Source of the DNA: Nitrospirota bacterium
Lineage (GTDB): Bacteria; Nitrospirota; Nitrospiria; Nitrospirales; NS-4
Assembly (NCBI GenBank): GCA_005877615.1
Contig: VBOD01000108.1
Coordinates: 18,750-82,749, forward strand
Reading direction: 5' to 3'
DNA: 64,000 nucleotides
Shown here: positions 4,500-37,232 of the stretch, piece by piece
Position numbering within the stretch: the first letter of the stretch is position 1
Layout: every line of letters begins with the position of its first letter
Notes under the pieces: generated by a model
What the model was told of the DNA's origin: nothing
Databases searched by the model: none
Seen by the model: the letters and a program-made list of their open reading frames with translations, nothing else
Made by a program: the position numbers and the translations under genes

Positions 4500-5696
4500 G
4501 TGGACCACGAGCAACTGGAAGAGAACCTGAGCCTGTACGCACTGGGCGCCCTCGACCCGGACTCGGTCCGCGAGATGGAACAGCACCTCGCGGCCGGATG
4601 CCCGGCGTGCAGTACCCTGCTCCGGCAATACCAGGCCGCCGTGACCATGCTCCCGTACGCGCTGCCGCACCAGACGCCCCCGCCTACACTCAAGTCCAGG
4701 ATCATGACAGCACTCTCTGGACCTGCCGCCTCCACCACCAGCGCGAGAGCGGACAGGCCCGCGTCCCCGGTGCCTATCCCGACCGCGCCGCCGGACCTGG
4801 TCTCGTCGCGCCCCTTCTCCAGGATCCCACAGGACCTGCCCGAGATGCCGGCACCGCAGCCCCTATCACGCCGCAGTGCGTCTCCCACGTGGCGGGAGCA
4901 GTTGAGGGCGACGTCCCCGGCCTTGGCCCACGCGCTTGAAGCCCTGCTGAAGCGTCTATCCCGCCGCCATGAGTTTCACAAATGGCGGGAGCAGATGAAG
5001 GTAGAGTCTCCGGCCTTCGCCGCCGCGCTTGGAGTCCTGCTGCTAGGTGTGGCAGGCTACGCCGTTCACCAGTACAACACGTTTGAAGCGGAACGAACGG
5101 CGACAGCCCGGGAGAGAGCAGAGGCGGCCCAATCGAAGCAGGAGACCGCCGATCTCAAACGCCAGTTGGCGGATAAGGAAGCCGCACTCACCAAAGCGAC
5201 GGATGAGCTGAAACGCACCGTCGAAACTCTGGGGACCACGCGCGAGCAACTCGCCCGGCACCAGGAACAGATCGACACGCTCCGGGCGCAACTCAAAACG
5301 GGGCGCGGCCGCAAGGGCGCCGAGGTTCTGCTGGCCGGAGGGGAGGATCTCCTGCGCATCCTGTCCTCCCCCACCGCCAAGATGGCGGATCTGCACGGGA
5401 CCGACGAGGCCAAGGACGCGTATGCCCTGGTGTTTGTGGAACCGGAGACGCGGCGCGGGTTCTTCTACGCCAACAATCTCCCGTCTCTCCCAGCCGGCAA
5501 GACCTACCAGCTCTGGGTGATCACCGACAAACCCGTCAGCGCCGGGGTGTTCTCAATCGATCGCGGGCACAAGGGCCGCCTGCTGATGCGCAACATTCCC
5601 GTCGTGCGCCGCATCAAGAAATTCGCGGTGAGCCTCGAACCGGAAGGCGGCCTCCCGCAGCCGACCGGCAGCATCTACCTGGCCGGCGCGCCGTAA
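4500..5696 (+). CDS. Anti-sigma factor (N-terminal zf-HC2, one TM helix, C-terminal RskA-like domain)
   Basis: HLAAGCPAC zinc motif and TM helix AFAAALGVLLLGVAGYAV. The C-terminal motif YQLWVITDKPVSAGVF...FAVSLEPEGG is typical of anti-sigma-K RskA. It lies directly downstream of the ECF sigma gene. Confidence 0.8.
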   Translation: MDHEQLEENLSLYALGALDPDSVREMEQHLAAGCPACSTLLRQYQAAVTMLPYALPHQTPPPTLKSRIMTALSGPAASTTSARADRPASPVPIPTAPPDLVSSRPFSRIPQDLPEMPAPQPLSRRSASPTWREQLRATSPALAHALEALLKRLSRRHEFHKWREQMKVESPAFAAALGVLLLGVAGYAVHQYNTFEAERTATARERAEAAQSKQETADLKRQLADKEAALTKATDELKRTVETLGTTREQLARHQEQIDTLRAQLKTGRGRKGAEVLLAGGEDLLRILSSPTAKMADLHGTDEAKDAYALVFVEPETRRGFFYANNLPSLPAGKTYQLWVITDKPVSAGVFSIDRGHKGRLLMRNIPVVRRIKKFAVSLEPEGGLPQPTGSIYLAGAP

Positions 5697-5712: not shown

Positions 5713-8700
5713 TTACAGAACGACCGGCACCGCCTGCCCCAGACGGAGGAAGATGACTTTGAACCCGGCGGGACAGTGACCCAACGCGTGGCGGACCGCC
5801 TCGGTGTAGATCCGGGCTTGCTCCCGGTAGGCCTCGGCCCGTTCCGCCACGTCAACCTCGGTAACGCGGTCAGTCTTGTAATCCGCCAGCCACACCGTGC
5901 CGTCCCTCTTATAAATGAGGTCGATGCGCCCTTCCATTAGAGCGGGAGAGGGCCCCGCTGACGCCCCTCCCGCACCCACTAGAGTGAGAGGGGGCCCCGG
6001 CCACGGCATGAGGAAGGGGACTTCGCGGCCGAGAATCGTGGCCTCTTTCAATTCGCCGTAGGCGTCGGAGCGCGCAAAGGCCTGCAGCACCTCACGGGCC
6101 TCTGCGAGAATCTCGTCACGATTCCCTTTGAACTCGTCCGGGAGCCAGCGTGCGGCGCGGCGATCTAATTGTTCAAGCAACACTTCAACCGTATCGCGAT
6201 AACTCCAGTCCTCTAGCGCTCTATGGACAAGGCCGCCGATGGCCGAAGCCAGCGTCGGGGAAGTTGTTGAAGTCGGCCCTTGGGGAGCGCCTTCGAGTGG
6301 GTGCGGGAGGGATGATGGTGTCAGGTAGAGGGATCGCTGGCGGCACTGCGACCACCGATCCTCACGGGCGCGCCAGCGGGCCTCAAACCCCGTGAGCTCG
6401 CGACGCGGCGCGGCGTCCTTCTTCTTCCGTCCTCCCCCGGCTCGCTTGCCGACGCCGGCGGGAATGACTGTCTTCGAGATGAGGTCGTCTGCAAGAGTAG
6501 GAGGGGGCCCCGCAGACACCCCTCCCACACCCACCTCCTCCTTGAGCAAGGCCAGGAAATTGCCCGGACTCTGCCGTCGCGTCAGCGCGCCCGAGAGCAC
6601 GAGCCGCTCCTTCGCGCGTGTCATCCCCACGTAGAGCAAGCGCCGCCGCTCGGCCTCGAGACGCGCCTCCAGCTTCTCCGCCACGTACGCCCCGCCCAGC
6701 GTGCAGCGCTCGCCCAGCCGCAGGCCCAAGACTCCCGTGGACCAATCCTGCTGGACTTGGATCGGCTCGTAGGGAGGCTTGGTGCCGGCATGCAACCCGA
6801 CCAGAATGACGATCGGGAACTCCAGCCCTTTGGCCTTGTGGACGCTCATGATCCGCACCGCCTCGCGGGATGTCTCCTCCGCCAGTCCGCTCTCGGACTC
6901 GTCCGGAGGGTCGGCGAGACGCGCTTTCAGCAGCTCCACGAAGCCGGCAAGCGTCATGCCGGGCTGATCCACGAGACCGTCGGCGAGCGCCCGCACCTTC
7001 CAGAGGTTCGCGACCGCCTGCTCGCCGTGCAAGGACGCCGCCGCCAGCTCCAGCAGGGGTAGCCGCTCGAAGATCAAGTCCAGCGCGTCCGGCAGCGGGC
7101 GCAGCGGGCAGTCCCGCTGCAGGGACGCGAGCGCCGCGTACAGCCGGCGTAGGTGACCGGCCTTGGGATGCGAGTCCAGACCGGACGGCCCCGTGCCGCG
7201 ATAATCCAGCGGCCCCAGCGCGACGAGGTCCATGATCTCCCGATCGGTCAGCGCGCCCACGGCCGAACGCAGCAGTCCCAACAGCGCGACCTGATCATGC
7301 GGATTCTGAACGCAGCACACGAGGTTGACGAGGTCAATCACCTCCTGCCGCTGGTAGAAATGTCGCTCCCCCTCCGCCACGTACGGCAGGCCGTGCCGGC
7401 GCAAGGCGCCCAGATACTCCCAGCTTTGCGTGAACGTCCGAAACAGCAGCGCCACATCCCCCGGCTCGACCGGACGGCGCCGTCCGTCCCGCTCGATCAG
7501 CACGTCCTGCCCGATGACCTCATGCTTCAGCCACCGCGCGACGGCTTCCGCTTCGGCCTCGACGCCTTCCTCGGCGCTGAGCGAAGCCCGCTCCTCATCG
7601 CGCGACGAGGATGCCACCAGCCGAAGCTCGACGCCCTGTGTCTGGGCGCCGGTCTTGCGGTCGGGGTCCGGCTCCAGGGGATCGTAGCGCGGCTGGAGGC
7701 CCGGGCGCTCGCGGATCAATCGCTCGAAGACCTGGTTGACGGCCATGAGGATCGTGCCATGACTGCGGAAATTCCGGGTGAGGGTGAGCGGCAGGCCGTC
7801 CTGGTCCTCCACCATCTGGCGGACGCGCTGGAACGCCTCGATATCAGCGCGACGGAACGCGAAGATCGACTGCTTGGGATCGCCGACGATGAACAGCTTG
7901 CCGGGATGCAGGCGTACGTTTGGCCAGGCCTCGGCCAGTCTGTCCTCATGCTCGGCCAGGAAGAGGAGGATCTCGTACTGAACCGGATCGGTATCCTGAA
8001 ACTCATCCACGAGGATGGCCTTGAACAGGCGCTTCAGCCGCGCCCGGACCTGCGGGTGGGTCTTCAGCAGGTCGCGGGCGCGGGCCAGGAGGCCGTCGAA
8101 CCGGACGTAGCCCGCATCGAGAAACCGTTGCCGGCACTGCGCGGCGAACGGCTCCAGCAGCCCGAGCAGGTCGCGGAAGAAGGCGTGATCGCTCGCCAGC
8201 ACCGCCTTGGCGGTCCTGACCAGATTGGCGGCGTCCTCAAACTCTTCCTCGCTCCAGCCGGCCGGAGGCTTCGCGCCTCCGTCCTTCTGCTCCAACAGCG
8301 TCCGCAGCTCCGCATCCAGTTCCGTAATGCCCGCAGGGCCGCCGCTGAGCACGCGGCCGAACAGACGGTCTGCGGCAGCCAGCAGCGCTTCGATTTGACG
8401 CGGCTTCTTCCCTCCCTCGCGGGAGGCCGACAAGAGCTCCCCTGCCCGCTGCTGCTTGCGTTCAAGCCAGGACCGGAGCGTCGGCGCGAGCCCGCCGCCG
8501 ACCTGGTCTTTGAGCGAATCGAGCGGGATGAGGTCATTGACCAGGGCCTTGGCGAACAACTCCAGCCCGGCCAGGTCCATGCCGCGCAGCACCCGTTTCC
8601 ACCGCTCCTGCCGGGGACAGGTGCCGCCGAGCTCGCCGTCCAGCCACTCACGCCACTCGCGCGTGAAGAAGTCGTCGAAGACGAACTCCTCATCAGGCGT

Positions 8701-9159
8701 GAACCGGGGATCCACGCCCGCTTCCAGGGGATAGAGGCGCAGGAGGTGCGCGGCGAAACTATGAATGGTCCCGATCTGGCTGTTCTCGAGCTCGCCCAGC
8801 GCCGCCTCGACCCGGCCCCGCAGCTCGTCGGTGGAGAGGCGATAGCGCGTGCGCAGGTCGGCGGCGGACAGGCGGTAGCGATCCCACAGCTCGCGGGCCG
8901 CCGGGGAGTCGTCCGGCGCCAGGACGCACTCCAGGCATTCCCGCAGGCGGATCTTGATCTCGTTGGCGGCCTTGTTCATGAACGTGAGCGCGACGACCTG
9001 CGACAGCGGCACCGCCTCGGGCGATTTGACGAGCAGGTGCACCAGGCGCGTGATCAGCAAGGTCGTCTTGCCGGTGCCCGCGCTGGCCGTCACCACCACG
9101 TTCCGATCGAAGGTCGTGGCGGCAAGAACCCGCGCCTGCTCGTCCCGTATCGCGGTCAC
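5713..9159 (-). CDS. addA: ATP-dependent helicase/nuclease subunit A (UvrD/Rep helicase + C-terminal PD-(D/E)XK nuclease)
   Basis: Walker A ASAGTGKTTLL. Helicase motifs ILVDEFQDTDPVQ, FIVGDPKQSIFAFRRAD and SVHKAKGLEFP...LLYVGMTRAKERL. Nuclease motif GRIDLIY...LADYKTD. Confidence 0.85.
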   Translation of the reverse strand: MTAIRDEQARVLAATTFDRNVVVTASAGTGKTTLLITRLVHLLVKSPEAVPLSQVVALTFMNKAANEIKIRLRECLECVLAPDDSPAARELWDRYRLSAADLRTRYRLSTDELRGRVEAALGELENSQIGTIHSFAAHLLRLYPLEAGVDPRFTPDEEFVFDDFFTREWREWLDGELGGTCPRQERWKRVLRGMDLAGLELFAKALVNDLIPLDSLKDQVGGGLAPTLRSWLERKQQRAGELLSASREGGKKPRQIEALLAAADRLFGRVLSGGPAGITELDAELRTLLEQKDGGAKPPAGWSEEEFEDAANLVRTAKAVLASDHAFFRDLLGLLEPFAAQCRQRFLDAGYVRFDGLLARARDLLKTHPQVRARLKRLFKAILVDEFQDTDPVQYEILLFLAEHEDRLAEAWPNVRLHPGKLFIVGDPKQSIFAFRRADIEAFQRVRQMVEDQDGLPLTLTRNFRSHGTILMAVNQVFERLIRERPGLQPRYDPLEPDPDRKTGAQTQGVELRLVASSSRDEERASLSAEEGVEAEAEAVARWLKHEVIGQDVLIERDGRRRPVEPGDVALLFRTFTQSWEYLGALRRHGLPYVAEGERHFYQRQEVIDLVNLVCCVQNPHDQVALLGLLRSAVGALTDREIMDLVALGPLDYRGTGPSGLDSHPKAGHLRRLYAALASLQRDCPLRPLPDALDLIFERLPLLELAAASLHGEQAVANLWKVRALADGLVDQPGMTLAGFVELLKARLADPPDESESGLAEETSREAVRIMSVHKAKGLEFPIVILVGLHAGTKPPYEPIQVQQDWSTGVLGLRLGERCTLGGAYVAEKLEARLEAERRRLLYVGMTRAKERLVLSGALTRRQSPGNFLALLKEEVGVGGVSAGPPPTLADDLISKTVIPAGVGKRAGGGRKKKDAAPRRELTGFEARWRAREDRWSQCRQRSLYLTPSSLPHPLEGAPQGPTSTTSPTLASAIGGLVHRALEDWSYRDTVEVLLEQLDRRAARWLPDEFKGNRDEILAEAREVLQAFARSDAYGELKEATILGREVPFLMPWPGPPLTLVGAGGASAGPSPALMEGRIDLIYKRDGTVWLADYKTDRVTEVDVAERAEAYREQARIYTEAVRHALGHCPAGFKVIFLRLGQAVPVVL
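5939..5997 (-). repeat. In-frame GC-rich palindromic repeat element, 1.5 units, inside the addA nuclease domain
   Basis: Core at 5944-5979; on the minus strand it reads GTGGGTGCGGGAGGGGCGTCAGCGGGGCCCTCTCCC. An extra half unit GAGAGGGGGCCCC lies at 5985-5997. Translated as PGPPLTLVGAGGASAGPSPAL. Confidence 0.8.
6494..6534 (-). repeat. In-frame GC-rich palindromic repeat element inside addA
   Basis: Core at 6499-6534; on the minus strand it reads GTGGGTGTGGGAGGGGTGTCTGCGGGGCCCCCTCCT. Translated as VGVGGVSAGPPP. Confidence 0.8.
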
Positions 9160-9163
9160 GGCG

Positions 9164-12100
9164 TCACCTCCCTCCGCCTGCTCGTTGCTGCCGGAGGTCC
9201 TCCAAGATTCGTTTCGCTACGTTGTCCCGCTGCCGCCACTTGGTCGGATGATGGGTCCGGCGGCAGGCCGGGGAAAACTCACAATAGTCGCAGTACTCGC
9301 CGGGCAGGATAAAGAAGCGCCCGTGCTGCACCCCCTCGAGGATCACGCGCACGGTCCCCTCCCCGCAGACCGCCGCGAGCCTCGTCCGCACCACCGGCCC
9401 GTTCGGCCAGTACGGGGCAAGGAAATAGAAGGCCGCCTCGTCCGGCACGGCCGGCTCCTCCTTTAAGACGCCGGTGGCGGCCAGCAAGTACAGCGGCGGC
9501 TGCAGGCGCTTCCCTCTGAGGGCCGCCGTCGCCAGATCGCGGTCTTCCAGTTTGGGCCCGCCCGACTCCGTGTACTTGTAGTCCACGATGCGGACATGGG
9601 CCTGCCCGTTCTCCCGACGCACATCCACCCGATCGAGGCGGCCGCGGATCGGCACGTGGCGCTGGGTGTCCGGCAACGTCGCGCCGAACGAGCCGGTCAC
9701 GGCCACCTCGAACAAGAGCGGACGGTAGCCGGACGCCCGCAGCTCCTGGAGGTCGTTCTCGATGAACGTCCGGACGAGGCGAGTGAGGTCTTCCTTGACC
9801 AGAGACCAGAGCAAGGGATAGCCGACGGGTTCGGTGGCTTCGAAATGGGTGAAGGCTTCGTCGGCAGCCGCACCCAGCCAGGCGTCGATGTCGGAGGAGG
9901 TCACCTGATCCGGAGCGACCTTGCGTTCAGTCAGCCGCTGGTAGAACAGTCGGAGGATGGCGTGGCACAGGGTGCCGCGGGCCCGCGCGTCCGGCACGAG
10001 GACGGAATCGGGCGTCTCCAGCGGCTCGAGCCGCAGGACTTTTTCGGCAAAATACTTGAAGGGACACTGCGCGTAGCGTTCCAGGGCCGTGGGCGAGACT
10101 CCGTGCCGCTCCAACATCCGCCAGTGGGCGCGGGCGACTCCGACCATGCCGTCATGGGGCGTCAGCGCCGGCTTCATCGAGTCAAGGGAGGCGACCGCCG
10201 CCAGCCCGTGCGCGAACAGCTCGGGCGGCTGATGCAGCCGCAACACCGACGTGAGGCTGGACGACGCGCCCCCTTGCAGGATCATCAGCAGGCCCGCCTC
10301 GCGCGGCGTGAGGACGGCGTAGTCGGACGGCCGCTGGGCAAACGGCCGCTCCGTCCACCGTAACGTCGGGCGACGCGTGATCCGGAGCTCGCTCTCGCCG
10401 ACGTGCGGCTTCAGCTCCGCCAGGTAGCCGGAGGGGACCATCATGCGGCCGTCGCGGTCGGCGCGTTGATGGCTGAGGACGACCCGCTCGCGGGCCGAGC
10501 GGAGCAGGAGCGCGACGAGCAGGCGCTCTTCCTCGAACCCCTCCAGCTTGCACGGGATCTTGAAGCCGAGATCGCGCGCCAGGACAACCCGGTCGGCATC
10601 GCGCAAGAACGGGTCCTCCTGGACGGAGCGCGGGAAGACCTTCTCATTGAGCCCGAGCACGAAGAGGGCGCGGAACGGCACGCCGCGGGCGTCCATCGCA
10701 TCCAGGACCTGGACTCCGTGGCGATCGCCAGCCGCGGACGGCACGCGGGCACGCTCTAGCACGCGGATGACATGCTCCACCCAGTCCGCCAGGGTGATGG
10801 CCTCGCTCAACTGCTCCAGCGACGCGACGGACTCCAGACACGCCTTGATGGCCGTCTGCACCCGGTCTGCGTGCGTGTCCGACGCGCCCGTCTCCCAGGC
10901 CGGCAGGTGGAAGTATTCCGGCAGCAGCTGTCGAAACTCTTCGGTGTAAGCATCCCATCCCGCCGTGCCGGGCAGCGCCGAGAGGGCCCGGTGCAGCCGC
11001 GCGACCAGGTCGAACAGCAGCGCCACCTGCTCGGCGGCGATGGCCGGCCGGGGCTGCTCCGCGTCATCGTCAACAGGCACGGCAAGGCCCGTCTTCGCGG
11101 CCCGCTCCAGGCGCAGCCAATCGCCCAGGCTGCCATCTTCCGGATTGCCCCGAACGATGCCCAGACGGCGGGTCGCCCAATCCCACAGGTCCGGGCGCAG
11201 ATTTGCATCAGCCGGACAGAGTTCTGCAACTCGGAAGGCGGGGGAAGTCAAAACCTCGATCACGAAAGCCCGCGGGAAGGCTTCCACCGGGAGGCGGAGA
11301 AACCGGATGATCGTCTTGACCAGCGGTTCATGGATCAGGGGCTCGCCCACCGGACAGGCGAAGGGAATCCGGTTGTCATCAAAGATGCGGCGGAGAGTCG
11401 GCATATAGGGGTCGAGCGTCCGCGCCACGACGCCGATCTCCAGCGGATCGCAGCGGGAGTCCTCGATCAGGCGGAGAATCTCCTTGGCCGCCGCCGCCAC
11501 CTCGTCCTCGACGCCGACGACGCTGACGATGCGGCAGGCCCCGCGAACAGCCGGTGCCATTTCATCAGCCAGCGATGACGTAGTGGGTGTGGGAGGGGCG
11601 CTTCGGGTGGGGCCCCCTCCCACTCTAATGGCCAACCCCTGGATGTACGTCTCAAAGAACCGCTGCGCGAACCGGTAGTCCGCGGATTCCGGTCGCACGG
11701 GGAAAAAGAGCGTGGTGGGGTACGCGCCCGCGACGGCCTTGAAGAAATCCAGTTGGCCTTGGGTCAAGTCGTAAAAGCCGTAGTAGCAGATGCGGGCCAT
11801 GCGGTTCAGGAACGCGGAGTCCGCCACGCGCTCCATGGCCAGGGCGGCCAGATCGTCCGGATCGGCGAGCCGCAGCGCCCGGTCCACTTCGAGAACGGCC
11901 GCGTACAGGCGAACCAGCGCGGCCAGGCGCGCCGGGTCGTCGGTCCTGAGCCGCCCCTCGTCCAGCGCCTGTAACACGGCGGACGGATCCACCCGCGCTT
12001 CCTTCAGGTCCTGGACCGTCGCCCAGAGACCGGTCCAGAGCCCCTGCATCCCCCGCCGGTCGCGGAATGCCTCCGCGCCGGGCACGCCGCGGTCCACGAG

Positions 12101-12391
12101 ATAGCGCAGCAGCTCTTCGCGGAAGGATCCGTTCACCAGGGCCGGCAGGATTTCTCCGCCCGCCTCCCGGAGCACGGTCATGGCCAGTTGATGGAACGTC
12201 AGCACGTGGCACTCAAGGAGCGCGCGCCCCTGCTCCACGGACAGGAGCCATTTCACGCGCCGCGCGAGCTGATGCGACGGGACCACGATGGCGAGCGGGC
12301 GGAGCGGATCGTCCTGTTTCAGCGAGTGGGATTCAGCGACGAGGGCGTTTTCGAGATCGGGATGGAACGGACCGGTGACGATCGAGAGCAT
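9164..12391 (-). CDS. addB: Helicase/nuclease subunit B (AddB-type, PD-(D/E)XK nuclease with Fe-S cluster cysteines)
   Basis: Lies 4 nt downstream of addA. C-terminal motif GRLDRVDV...IVDYKY and Cys cluster QCPFKY...CDYCEFSPAC. The size (1075 aa) is typical of AddB. Confidence 0.8.
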   Translation of the reverse strand: MLSIVTGPFHPDLENALVAESHSLKQDDPLRPLAIVVPSHQLARRVKWLLSVEQGRALLECHVLTFHQLAMTVLREAGGEILPALVNGSFREELLRYLVDRGVPGAEAFRDRRGMQGLWTGLWATVQDLKEARVDPSAVLQALDEGRLRTDDPARLAALVRLYAAVLEVDRALRLADPDDLAALAMERVADSAFLNRMARICYYGFYDLTQGQLDFFKAVAGAYPTTLFFPVRPESADYRFAQRFFETYIQGLAIRVGGGPTRSAPPTPTTSSLADEMAPAVRGACRIVSVVGVEDEVAAAAKEILRLIEDSRCDPLEIGVVARTLDPYMPTLRRIFDDNRIPFACPVGEPLIHEPLVKTIIRFLRLPVEAFPRAFVIEVLTSPAFRVAELCPADANLRPDLWDWATRRLGIVRGNPEDGSLGDWLRLERAAKTGLAVPVDDDAEQPRPAIAAEQVALLFDLVARLHRALSALPGTAGWDAYTEEFRQLLPEYFHLPAWETGASDTHADRVQTAIKACLESVASLEQLSEAITLADWVEHVIRVLERARVPSAAGDRHGVQVLDAMDARGVPFRALFVLGLNEKVFPRSVQEDPFLRDADRVVLARDLGFKIPCKLEGFEEERLLVALLLRSARERVVLSHQRADRDGRMMVPSGYLAELKPHVGESELRITRRPTLRWTERPFAQRPSDYAVLTPREAGLLMILQGGASSSLTSVLRLHQPPELFAHGLAAVASLDSMKPALTPHDGMVGVARAHWRMLERHGVSPTALERYAQCPFKYFAEKVLRLEPLETPDSVLVPDARARGTLCHAILRLFYQRLTERKVAPDQVTSSDIDAWLGAAADEAFTHFEATEPVGYPLLWSLVKEDLTRLVRTFIENDLQELRASGYRPLLFEVAVTGSFGATLPDTQRHVPIRGRLDRVDVRRENGQAHVRIVDYKYTESGGPKLEDRDLATAALRGKRLQPPLYLLAATGVLKEEPAVPDEAAFYFLAPYWPNGPVVRTRLAAVCGEGTVRVILEGVQHGRFFILPGEYCDYCEFSPACRRTHHPTKWRQRDNVAKRILEDLRQQRAGGGR
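11583..11627 (+). repeat. In-frame GC-rich palindromic repeat element inside addB, opposite orientation to the other copies
   Basis: Core at 11583-11621; on the plus strand it reads GTGGGTGTGGGAGGGGCGCTTCGGGTGGGGCCCCCTCCC. The gene reads the complementary strand as VGGGPTRSAPPTPT. Confidence 0.8.
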
Positions 12392-12513: not shown

Positions 12514-13107
12514 ATGGACCAGGAACTCGTTCAGTATCTCGATAGCCGATTCCAATCGGTTACCAGGCAATTCCAAGAGTTGCGGGGGGAGATGAGTGAA
12601 CAGCTCCAAGGGTTGCGCGGCGGGACGACCGAGGGGTTCCAAGGGTTGCGTGATGAGACGACTGCGGGGCTCCAAGAGTTGCGTGGCGAAATGACCGCGG
12701 GGTTCCAAGAATTGCGCGGCGAGATGACCGCAGGGCTCCAAGGGTTACGCGGGGAGATGACTGAGGCGCTCCAGGGGTTGCGCGGCGAGATGACCGCGGG
12801 GTTCCAAGGGTTACGCGGGGAGATGACTGAGGAACTCCAAGAGTTGCAGGGGGAGATGACCGCGGGGCTGGAAGAGGTCAAGCGGCACTCCGGCGTGCTG
12901 GTAGAAGGCCTCCGGCACGAGCTTCAGCTCGTGGCCGAAGGCTTCGCCATGCACGTCCAAGTTCAGCACGTGCAGGAACGGGAATACCACGACCGGCAGC
13001 ATCAGGAGACCCGCGCGCTCATCCGATCACTCTATGATGAGCTCCGGCAGCAGCACGACCACCTCCGCCAGCGTGTCGAGAACCTCGAACAGAAGAGACA
13101 GAACTAG
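12514..13107 (+). CDS. Repeat protein: nine tandem 11-residue units (LRGEMTAGxQG) followed by a His/Gln-rich coiled-coil tail
   Basis: ATG at 12514 within ORF 12436..13107. TTGACA (12466-12471), 17 nt, TACTCT lie upstream. The periodic sequence is visible in both DNA and protein. Confidence 0.7.
   Translation: MDQELVQYLDSRFQSVTRQFQELRGEMSEQLQGLRGGTTEGFQGLRDETTAGLQELRGEMTAGFQELRGEMTAGLQGLRGEMTEALQGLRGEMTAGFQGLRGEMTEELQELQGEMTAGLEEVKRHSGVLVEGLRHELQLVAEGFAMHVQVQHVQEREYHDRQHQETRALIRSLYDELRQQHDHLRQRVENLEQKRQN
12580..12876 (+). repeat. Tandem 33-nt coding repeat, 9 units
   Basis: Units TTGCG(C/G)GG(C/G)GAGATGAC(C/T)GCGGGG(T/C)TCCAAG(G/A)G with few substitutions. They encode LRGEMSEQLQG, LRGGTTEGFQG, LRDETTAGLQE, LRGEMTAGFQE, LRGEMTAGLQG, LRGEMTEALQG, LRGEMTAGFQG, LRGEMTEELQE and LQGEMTAGLEE. 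Confidence 0.9.
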
Positions 13108-35957: not shown

Positions 35958-37232
35958 CTACGGAAGAATGAGCACCGCGTCAAGAATTCGATGCGCCAGC
36001 TCATGCTTGGACATGAGCGGCAATGCCTCACAACGGCCCGCACGGTCCAGCAAGGTCGCGCGGTTCGTGTCCGTGCCGAACCCGGCTCCGGGCTCTGAGA
36101 CGTCGTTGGCGACGATCAGGTCCAGCGCCTTGTCGAGCAGCTTGCCTCTGGCGCGCGCGACCAGATCGCCCGTCTCGGCCGCGAACCCGACCACGAGCTG
36201 CCCGGCCCGTCGCGGCGGCAGGTCCTTCAAAATGTCCTTGGTCGGCTCCAGTGCCAGCGTCCGCACGTCGCGGCCTTTCGGTACCTTGCCCTGGGCCGGG
36301 CGCGCCGGCCGGAAATCGGCGACCGCCGCCGCCATGATCAGCACATCGGTGCCTGGGAAACGGGTGACGACTTCTTTACGCATCTCCTCGGACGTGACCA
36401 CCGAGACGTACGCGACGTTGGGAACGGGCGCAAGACTGGTCGGCCCCGCGACCAGGACGACGTCAGCGCCGCGATCCCGTGCGGCTTCCGCCAGCGCCCA
36501 GCCCATCTTCCCGGACGAGCGGTTCGACAGGAACCGCACCGGATCGAGCGGTTCCTGCGTGGGCCCGGCCGTGATGAGGACCCGCCGGCCGCGAAAGTCC
36601 TTGGCGCAGAGAGCCCCGAAGATCGCCGATAGGATGGCGTCCTCCTCGGGAAAGCGCCCCTGGCCGACCCGGCCCGACGCCAACGGCCCGACCTCCGGCT
36701 CCAGCACGGTGACCCCGCGCTGACGGAGCGTCCGCACGTTGGCGCAGACCGCCGGGTGGGTCCACATGCCGCCGTCCATGGCGGGAACCACCACCACCGG
36801 GCACTCCGCCGCAAGCACCAGCGTCGTGAGGAGATCGTCGGCGAGGCCATGCGCCAGCTTGGCGACGCAGTGAGCCGAGGCCGGCGCGATCGCGATCAGA
36901 TCGGCTCCGTCCGCGAGCGCAAGGTGCGGCATGACATTCACAGCGGGAGGGGGCCCCGCGGAACGCGCCCCTCCCGCACCCACCTCTCCGCTCGACGACG
37001 GAAACAGATCGGTGCCGACGGGGTGGCCCGTGAGCGCCTCAAAGGTCAGCGGTGCGACGAAGCGCTGCGCGGTGTGGGTCATGACCACGCGCACCGTCGC
37101 TCCTTCGGTCATCAGGCGGCGCGCCAGCGACGCCGCCTTGTAGGCGGCGATGCTGCCGGTCACTCCGAGCACGATGGTCTTCCCCGCCAAGCGCGCGGCA
37201 GGCGCGAGGGGGGTGCGTTTAGTCGTCTTCAC
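35958..37232 (-). CDS. coaBC: Bifunctional phosphopantothenoylcysteine decarboxylase / phosphopantothenate--cysteine ligase
   Basis: N-terminal flavoprotein domain (IVLGVTGSIAAYKA, PAMDGGMW) and C-terminal CoaB domain (ITAGPTQEPLDPVRFLSNRSSGKMG, AAAVADFRP). Confidence 0.9.
   Translation of the reverse strand: MKTTKRTPLAPAARLAGKTIVLGVTGSIAAYKAASLARRLMTEGATVRVVMTHTAQRFVAPLTFEALTGHPVGTDLFPSSSGEVGAGGARSAGPPPAVNVMPHLALADGADLIAIAPASAHCVAKLAHGLADDLLTTLVLAAECPVVVVPAMDGGMWTHPAVCANVRTLRQRGVTVLEPEVGPLASGRVGQGRFPEEDAILSAIFGALCAKDFRGRRVLITAGPTQEPLDPVRFLSNRSSGKMGWALAEAARDRGADVVLVAGPTSLAPVPNVAYVSVVTSEEMRKEVVTRFPGTDVLIMAAAVADFRPARPAQGKVPKGRDVRTLALEPTKDILKDLPPRRAGQLVVGFAAETGDLVARARGKLLDKALDLIVANDVSEPGAGFGTDTNRATLLDRAGRCEALPLMSKHELAHRILDAVLILP
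36942..36983 (-). repeat. In-frame GC-rich palindromic repeat element inside the coaBC flavoprotein domain
   Basis: Core at 36945-36983; on the minus strand it reads GTGGGTGCGGGAGGGGCGCGTTCCGCGGGGCCCCCTCCC. Translated as VGAGGARSAGPPP. Confidence 0.8.

Follow-up and report, generated by a model that had tools for sequence, protein, structure and literature searches.

An intragenic, probably REP-like palindromic repeat in addA and other genes of Nitrospirota

Results

Repeat copies in addA, addB and coaBC

The window analysed here, 64,000 nucleotides (nt) of contig VBOD01000108.1 (positions 18,750 to 82,749; assembly GCA_005877615.1) from a Nitrospirota bacterium, has a G+C content of 64.5% and carries the genes addA, addB and coaBC, each of which holds one or more copies of a short palindromic repeat. 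The copy under study lies in addA, at a position referred to below as site 1. On the plus strand, 6494-6534 reads AGAGT AGGAGGGGGCCCCGCAGACACCCCTCCCACACCCAC, with the tag AGAGT at 6494-6498 and the core at 6499-6534. The gene is read from the minus strand, where the segment is in frame (...LLKEE VGVGGVSAGPPP TLADD...), and the AddA translation contains LLKEEVGVGGVSAGPPPTLADD. The best solved relative of this protein is B. subtilis AddA (3u44_A). Alignment to it stops at query residue 861 and restarts at 1013, and the insert, at about residues 875-891, lies just past the last helicase motif. The translation and this alignment bear out an earlier, sequence-only reading of the window, which had described an in-frame copy of a repeat element in the linker that follows the helicase domain of AddA.

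A profile of the repeat family, built from 67 copies found outside the window, matched the site-1 copy with E = 3.4e-11, confirming it, well above chance expectation, as a member of a dispersed repeat. Six matches to the profile were found in the 64-kb window, comprising four full copies (E values of 9e-13 to 5e-11) and two weak half copies (5979-6000 and 6297-6311). Two of the full copies and both half copies lie in addA, one full copy lies in addB and one in coaBC, so that addAB holds four of the five occupied sites of the window. The two full copies within 600 nt that had been reported earlier are thus present, but the half copies beside them number two, not one. The left flank AGAGT is indeed common to the site-1 and addB copies, the latter sharing TAGAGT. 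A search allowing up to three mismatches across the window returned no copy besides the site-1 copy itself, so its relatives in the window are not near-identical to it. A gapped stem pattern recovered 5944-5979, 11583-11621 and 36945-36983, together with the half copy at 6297-6312; the family is detectable only with such a pattern and the profile.

The site-1 copy is degenerate. It has AGGAGGGG in place of GGGAGGGG, its first stem base is A, not G, and its predicted fold equals that of shuffled sequence (z ~0), compared with z values of -2.2 to -4.0 for the other copies. It is probably an old, decaying copy, with no evident function of its own. The extent given for it in Table 1 is estimated from the comparison of empty and filled coaBC alleles and from the flank logo.

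Table 1. Repeat copies in the window and the genes that carry them
Feature	Position	Strand	Description
addA site 1, copy under study	6487..6537	+	probable extent; tag 6487-6498 (GTCTGCAAGAGT), core 6499-6534, ~3 further nt; minus-strand reading EVGVGGVSAGPPPTLAD
addA site 2, full copy	5934..5979	+	tag CCATTAGAGC, 36-nt core; reads VGAGGASAGPSPAL; E = 9e-13, z = -4.0
addA site 2, left-arm half copy	5980..5997	+	TAGAGTGAGAGGGGGCCC; directly abuts the full copy
addA site 3, right-arm half copy	6297..6312	-	TCCCTCCCGCACCCAC on the minus strand; reads SLPHP
addB, full copy and tag	11583..11631	-	39 nt, opposite orientation relative to the gene; reads IRVGGGPTRSAPPTPT; E = 6e-12
coaBC, full copy and tag	36933..36986	+	39 nt; 54-nt in-frame insertion; reads EVGAGGARSAGPPPAVNV; E = 5e-11
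addA host gene	5713..9159	-	1148 amino acids; UvrD-type helicase and PD-(D/E)XK nuclease domains intact
addB host gene	9164..12391	-	1075 amino acids
coaBC host gene	35958..37232	-	424 amino acids

Site 2 of addA is a loop of the nuclease domain ahead of the LMEGRIDL motif. TAGAG stands on both sides of 5944-5979 and was considered as a target duplication; it is explained by the half copy that abuts the full copy, and it is not general. The half copy at site 3 is what remains of a full copy, which loci L115, L116 and L003 have preserved intact. The sole Rfam match in this region, IRES_VEGF_A at 6272-6406 of the window, scored 20 bits against a gathering score of 160, and was dismissed as a chance match to GC-rich sequence.

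A dispersed hairpin family

A species-representative genome collection was scanned with the pattern GGGAGGGG-N(4-30)-CCCCTCCCRCACCCAC, which gave at least 113 loci. About 65 of these, from at least 21 Nitrospirota assemblies, carry the same element, and the AddA homologues carry the source names Nitrospirae or Nitrospirota. With a relaxed pattern, the 66 sequences (65 loci and the window) yielded at least 87 copies at 61 distinct sites after merging of orthologous duplicates. Among the matches listed, the core is mostly 36 nt (39 copies) or 39 nt (28 copies) long.

The element measures ~46-54 nt. A 10-nt tag, C-N-A-T-Y-N-N-A-G-Y, is followed by Y-GGGAGGGG, GCCC, an inner stem of 2-4 bp with its loop, CCCCTCCC-R and the tail CACCCAC. 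In the resulting hairpin of ~10 bp, the outer stem G-Y-GGGAGGGG / CCCCTCCC-R-C encloses the GCCC bulge and the small inner stem-loop, and ACCCAC forms a 3' tail. At the closing pair of the outer stem, a position left free in the search pattern, 20 copies have U-A, 7 have C-G and 2 lack pairing, and the inner helix shows changes on both sides at all four of its pairs. None of 500 shuffles reached the observed covariation score at the free positions, and slid registers lose pairing.

Over the 61 sites, the left flank has C at -10 (77%), T at -7 (79%), Y at -6 (93%), A at -3 (79%), G at -2 (70%) and Y at -1 (100%), and also favours A at -8; few copies contain GTAG as such. Beyond -10, and across the right flank, no conservation was seen over the de-duplicated sites. 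A comparison of flanks for a target motif, as proposed in the sequence-only reading, therefore does reveal a conserved stretch at -10 to -1, but one that belongs to the insert and not to the target. The AGAG(T/C) suspected there is the element's own conserved tag, which lies inside the inserted DNA at coaBC (see below), and the recurrence of GAG on the right does not survive the removal of orthologous duplicates, which leaves only the left flank conserved.

The copies are singletons or form head-to-tail arrays with a period of 42 or 45 nt and 6-nt junctions (L006, L116, L047), and inverted pairs in L059 and L077 lie in or beside ordinary genes. A CRISPR array was considered and rejected, as its spacers would be ~25-40 nt long, in contrast to the 6-nt junctions, and the other copies are solitary and lie inside genes.

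At several orthologous sites the loop of the first element contains a second palindrome, CCCGTTGC...GCAACGGG (reading RVPVAPxNATGDG), which indicates that the hairpin loop is itself an insertion target. This nested palindrome is carried by L120 (6126-6193), L117 (3110-3178), the CoaBC proteins P0129, P0133, P0147, P0149 and P0154, and the AddA proteins P0004, P0013 and P0019.

The scan also returned look-alikes from unrelated phyla, with the same outer stem GGGAGGGG/CCCCTCCC and the tail GCACCCAC, in which the loops and the downstream sequence (CCCAAGAAA or CCCGCCA) differ. They come from metagenome-assembled genomes (MAGs) of Clostridia (L002, L005, L013, L017-L019, L021, L022, L024 and others), from Acetobacteraceae (L008, L015, L045, L063, L108) and from a deltaproteobacterial MAG (L004, L052). 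Their shared tail could be a coincidence of the search pattern or a common recognition feature.

Insertion and turnover at orthologous sites

An empty coaBC allele was found in L124, which reads GAT GCG GGC / CTG CCG CAC, as compared with AGC GGA / GAG GTGGGT...CCC GCT GTG AAT GTC / ATG CCG CAC in the window. The insertion is 54 nt long in the window and L044 and 51 nt long in L014 and L078. Comparison of the empty and filled alleles shows no duplicated target of 3 nt or more and places the conserved 10-nt tag within the inserted DNA. The empty allele, with the motif inside the insertion, rules out that the flanking CAT/ATG is a native Met codon or a target motif, and it resembles neither arm of the element. 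The CoaBC homologues form a series, from the plain DLFxxxxx-MPHL (many proteins) through full elements of 36 or 39 nt and the nested form (RVPVAPxNATGDG) to a left half (EVGVGG) and a right half (PPTKMV).

The site-1 element of addA is carried by the window, by L119 as a 39-nt loop variant (94% AddA identity), by L118, and by L120 with the nested palindrome. L114, L115, L116 and L117 (83-91% AddA identity) lack it, as do the AddA proteins P0006, P0008, P0010 and P0011, at 83-91% identity, and in L121-L123, which are more distant, an unrelated linker of 16-17 amino acids occupies this position. The segment is thus not universal in AddA proteins, and the gap expected in its orthologues exists among relatives at 83-91% identity; by analogy with coaBC its size would be ~17 amino acids (51 nt), not the 12 originally supposed.

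At site 2, most orthologues, down to 61% AddA identity, have the half site GGGCCCCCTCCCRCTNTAATGG alone, whereas the window and L121 have a half and a full copy in direct repeat, L120 has one copy of a different variant, and L116 has three head-to-tail copies of 45 nt. At site 3, the window, L119 and L120 keep a remnant of the right arm, L114 and L118 keep one of the left arm, and L115, L116 and L003 have a full copy. The window, L120, L115, L116 and L121 have a copy at the addB site, and L122 and L123 have none. All of these allele changes keep the reading frame. The three addA sites are old, common to several genomes and separately polymorphic, which disfavours the recent local spread within addA that had been suggested; the two full copies of the gene also differ at 5/36 positions of the core. 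Loops of orthologous copies diverge far more than their flanks, as between the window and L119 at site 1, or in CACC..GGTG versus CGCT..AGCG at addB.

The AddA homologues P0044-P0059, from distant Nitrospira, have unrelated inserts in the loop that corresponds to 5934-6000 of the window, for example RLWAMGYGAGKVQADSSLSPIAYRPLPAS and GEGRGARGKGLEEKEGPIASGPGPRAF, which look like translations of palindromes. This loop of the nuclease domain may be a general hot spot that tolerates insertions.

Reading frames and host genes

Coding calls were made with a codon-usage likelihood model trained on long open reading frames (ORFs) from the loci, which replaced a cruder GC3 (G+C at third codon positions) classifier. 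At least 24 of the 61 sites have coding sequence on both flanks in one continuous frame, and most of the others are coding on one flank, the model being conservative enough that the site-1 copy itself scored as coding on one flank only. Among the 24 both-flank sites, the element is read as VGxGGxSAGPPP in 14, as VGGGPxxAPPxPT in 7 and as EWEGAP..PLPHP in 3, and the other three frames are not used. Two of the unused frames are explained by the consensus tag CCATTAGAGT, which supplies TAG in one and, in its complement, TAA in the other. The third unused frame is open, and would encode G-C-G-R-G-V-C-G, with two Cys and an Arg. Against a uniform distribution over the four open frames, counts of 14, 7, 3 and 0 give a chi-square of ~18 (3 degrees of freedom, p ~4e-4).

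By Pfam, the hosts include AddA, AddB, CoaBC, MurG, a BioF-like gene, PurL, ThiC, NuoL, CarA, TruB and a secretin, as well as FtsX/MacB permeases, an S58 peptidase and a giant immunoglobulin-domain protein with four copies. Some copies lie at gene ends or between genes, and some at gene ends supply the stop codon (L006, L059, L068). Judging from the intact reading frames, the inserts would be translated as part of the host protein. The intragenic survivors are confined to stop-free frames that encode small or flexible residues. This pattern of hosts and frames is as expected from near-indiscriminate insertion, followed by selection for in-frame, stop-free inserts of small residues in tolerant linkers.

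Conservation at the DNA level

Conservation was examined in the loci retrieved via the AddA protein, a set hence unbiased for the element. In the addB copy, 9/9 four-fold degenerate columns are identical, against 65% in the rest of the gene (p ~0.02), and in the half site at addA site 2 the four four-fold degenerate columns are identical in five genomes, against a background of 27% (p ~0.006), both values being drawn from few columns in related sequences. The addB copy also keeps the rare codons GGA (13% usage) and CCT (9%). Conservation of the stems together with divergence of the loops would fit repeated re-insertion where half sites persist, gene conversion between copies, or self-correction within the hairpin. 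A function at the level of the host is possible but weakly supported, because close relatives freely lose or halve copies.

Other repeats near addAB

Upstream of addB, a divergent plus-strand ORF contains a 33-nt tandem repeat at 12516-12910, with ~9 copies (also scored as a 99-nt period), which encode an 11-residue unit, (F/L)QELRGEMTAG. Downstream of addA, adjacent direct repeats lie in or beside ORFs at 4858-5042 (92 nt, 76% identity) and 213-330 (58 nt, 83% identity).

Discussion

Comparison with known systems

The element is REP-like overall (REP, repetitive extragenic palindrome) and resembles the palindromes of Rickettsia in its coding behaviour. Like REPs, which are short (~20-40 nt) imperfect palindromes, it is a short GC-rich hairpin, with a stem of ~10 bp and z values of -2.2 to -4.0 for intact copies, and it shares with them a tag conserved at one end, copies dispersed over many sites (61 in at least 21 assemblies and the window), the existence of several variants and the absence of target duplication. 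REP tags are known to supply stop codons to neighbouring ORFs, and intragenic REPs have been described, many of them in uvrABCD, recBCD, polA and truB (Di Nocera, De Gregorio and Rocco 2013; PMC3733652). The present tag likewise gives stops to neighbouring ORFs, and some copies fall in the recBCD, uvrD and truB classes, here addA, addB and truB. The clustering in addAB of the window is noteworthy in that it echoes the bias of intragenic REPs toward uvrABCD, recBCD and polA, which is published and unexplained (PMC3733652).

There are differences from REPs too. REPs are mainly extragenic, whereas the present element is intragenic and translated in an apparent majority of cases (at least 24/61 sites are coding on both flanks, and most of the others on one); its tag is NNAG-Y after C-N-A-T-Y, not a clean GTAG or CGTC; REPINs are inverted doublets, and here the copies are singletons or head-to-tail arrays; and the host phylum is Nitrospirota, for which no literature report of this element was found. 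With insertion sequences (IS) of the IS200/IS605 type the element has in common hairpin-based ends, the absence of a target duplication and one-sided conservation, but no linked transposase was found, and the 10-nt motif at coaBC lies inside the insertion and is not an external target.

Rickettsia palindromic elements (RPEs), as the work of Ogata et al. is cited in PMC3733652, are palindromes that lie in frame in functional housekeeping genes, are translated, and are tolerated in loops and linkers. The likeness is one of function only, and the sequences are probably unrelated. The RPE host is a reduced, AT-rich, obligate intracellular genome, in contrast to the free-living environmental hosts of this very GC-rich element of 46-54 nt. 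RPEs are ~100-150 bp long.

Origin of the repeat

We put a probability of roughly 0.7 on the explanation that the addA segment belongs to a lineage-specific family of REP-like palindromes of ~46-54 nt, filtered by selection for harmless linkers. The repeat is dispersed in many unrelated genes of the Nitrospirota clade and has entered without target-site duplication, and its sites turn over by in-frame deletion to halves, head-to-tail amplification, variant replacement and nesting of the second palindrome. Since the element is a hairpin with a one-sided tag, leaves no target duplication and forms head-to-tail arrays, a single-strand hairpin mechanism of the REP/IS200 kind is pointed to. The element would move as a hairpin of single-stranded DNA, on which a tyrosine HUH transposase of the RAYT (REP-associated tyrosine transposase) or IS200 type acts in trans; the arms may stay complementary through self-templating of the hairpin or gene conversion; and purifying selection would spare only insertions of a multiple of three in tolerant linkers or loops, such as the helicase-nuclease linker of AddA.

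Several observations weigh against this explanation. In ~0.93 Mb around the copies, tblastn with approximate RAYT-like and IS608 TnpA queries, which give leads only, and with the RAYT fragment of L052 found no gene of the RAYT or IS200 type that the repeats flank, and no match adjacent to a copy. The only Y1 transposase family seen in these contigs (L121/L125, L126, L127) has ends of another kind, perfect 21-nt inverted repeats (AAACCGGGACAGATTTATTTT, with an extra internal copy) that are unrelated to the element. Its gene in L121 (7426-8219, on the contig of L125), the single Nitrospirota match of the transposase search, lies directly downstream of addA and is a pseudogene with an in-frame TAG; in L127 (2892-3707) it is intact, and relatives with the same ends occur at 80 metagenomic loci, on contigs of 37-65% G+C. 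For comparison, a classical RAYT/REP arrangement is seen at 700-1370 of L052, from the deltaproteobacterial MAG and picked up by the search pattern, where a RAYT-like gene (HUH motif MPDHIHLLL, YIWENPVRAG) stands between inverted GTAG-GGGCGGGGTTTATCCCCGCCC REPs. The tag of the present element is only loosely GTAG-like and its copies are not REPIN doublets, and most copies appear to be intragenic, unlike classical REPs. Because the outer stem and tail were fixed in the search that gave loci L001-L113, conservation of those bases in this set is circular. Neutral decay of a dead insertion predicts neither the four-fold conservation of the stem nor a site-2 half site kept to 61% identity. Finally, in AddA (site 1) and in AddB the element seems to take the place of an unrelated native linker of similar length rather than adding to it, which simple insertion does not explain; we suppose that insertion was followed by trimming of the linker.

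Spread of the repeat might require no transposase at all. Templated synthesis, by gene conversion, template switching or self-correction within the hairpin, could spread and homogenise it, with new copies arising where the sequence already resembles an arm. Much of the allele series is in keeping with this: the ground state of site 2 in most orthologues is a half site, conserved as DNA to 61% protein identity, half and full copies stand in direct repeat in the window and L121, orthologous copies whose flanking DNA is 87-95% identical differ in the loop and have identical stems, and copies are amplified head to tail, with no cognate transposase found around them. Evolution of REPs by gene conversion is, as cited in PMC3733652, an old proposal. 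Yet the coaBC allele was filled despite its lack of likeness to either arm, and the flanks of the 61 sites are alike only within the tag. Arms of 13-16 nt would, moreover, offer little homology for RecA-dependent conversion. We consider this route unlikely. A function of the nucleic acid for the host, as an mRNA structure in translation or decay or as a DNA signal in recombination or repair, selected at orthologous sites with the peptide as a by-product, is a still weaker candidate, to which we assign a low probability. It would account for the compensatory changes that maintain stem pairing, the four-fold conservation above background, the retention of rare codons and the concentration of occupied window sites in addAB. 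However, close relatives freely lose copies or keep only half of one, with nothing to indicate compensation, the site-1 copy has lost its fold, the host genes are functionally unrelated, and the conservation statistics are of the limited kind described above.

A miniature inverted-repeat transposable element (MITE), that is, a deletion derivative of an IS with a DDE transposase, moved via terminal inverted repeats and making target-site duplications, would also be short, non-coding by itself, palindromic and dispersed. But there is no duplication of 3 nt or more at coaBC, conservation is confined to a single flank, the inverted repeat makes up one continuous hairpin instead of two separate ends, and 46-54 nt is under the usual 70-300 nt (PMC3733652), which makes this origin very improbable. 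That the segment is a native Gly/Pro-rich linker, evolved in place and similar to other genes through convergent low complexity, gains some appeal from the linker of similar length that distant AddA proteins have at this position. It is refuted by profile matches at the DNA level in unrelated genes (E ~1e-11) and by the use of three frames, in both orientations, with some copies at gene ends or between genes, and retains almost no credibility.

The REP-like explanation leaves room for a further proposal, which we regard as doubtful, that the repeat is more than merely tolerated, and that the translated hairpin has its palindrome maintained at orthologous sites within genes, over a clade that spans ~60-95% AddA identity. 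Pointing to this are the compensatory changes in the stem, the conservation of four-fold degenerate positions and rare codons, the half site conserved as DNA, and the four sites in addAB. If true, it would imply either a nucleic-acid function for the host or a self-correcting propagation that needs no adjacent RAYT.

Significance

Protein-coding palindromes, described in Rickettsia and in a few proteobacteria rich in REPs, are here extended to Nitrospirota, which are free-living and high in G+C. The natural series of empty, full, half, tandem and nested alleles lends itself to measuring how such elements arise and decay. In this lineage the inserts inflate and fragment alignments of AddAB, CoaBC, MurG and other proteins, and can pass for lineage-specific motifs. 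The inserts also show how essential enzymes can gain linkers of 14-18 residues from a selfish hairpin repeat, or have their own replaced by it.

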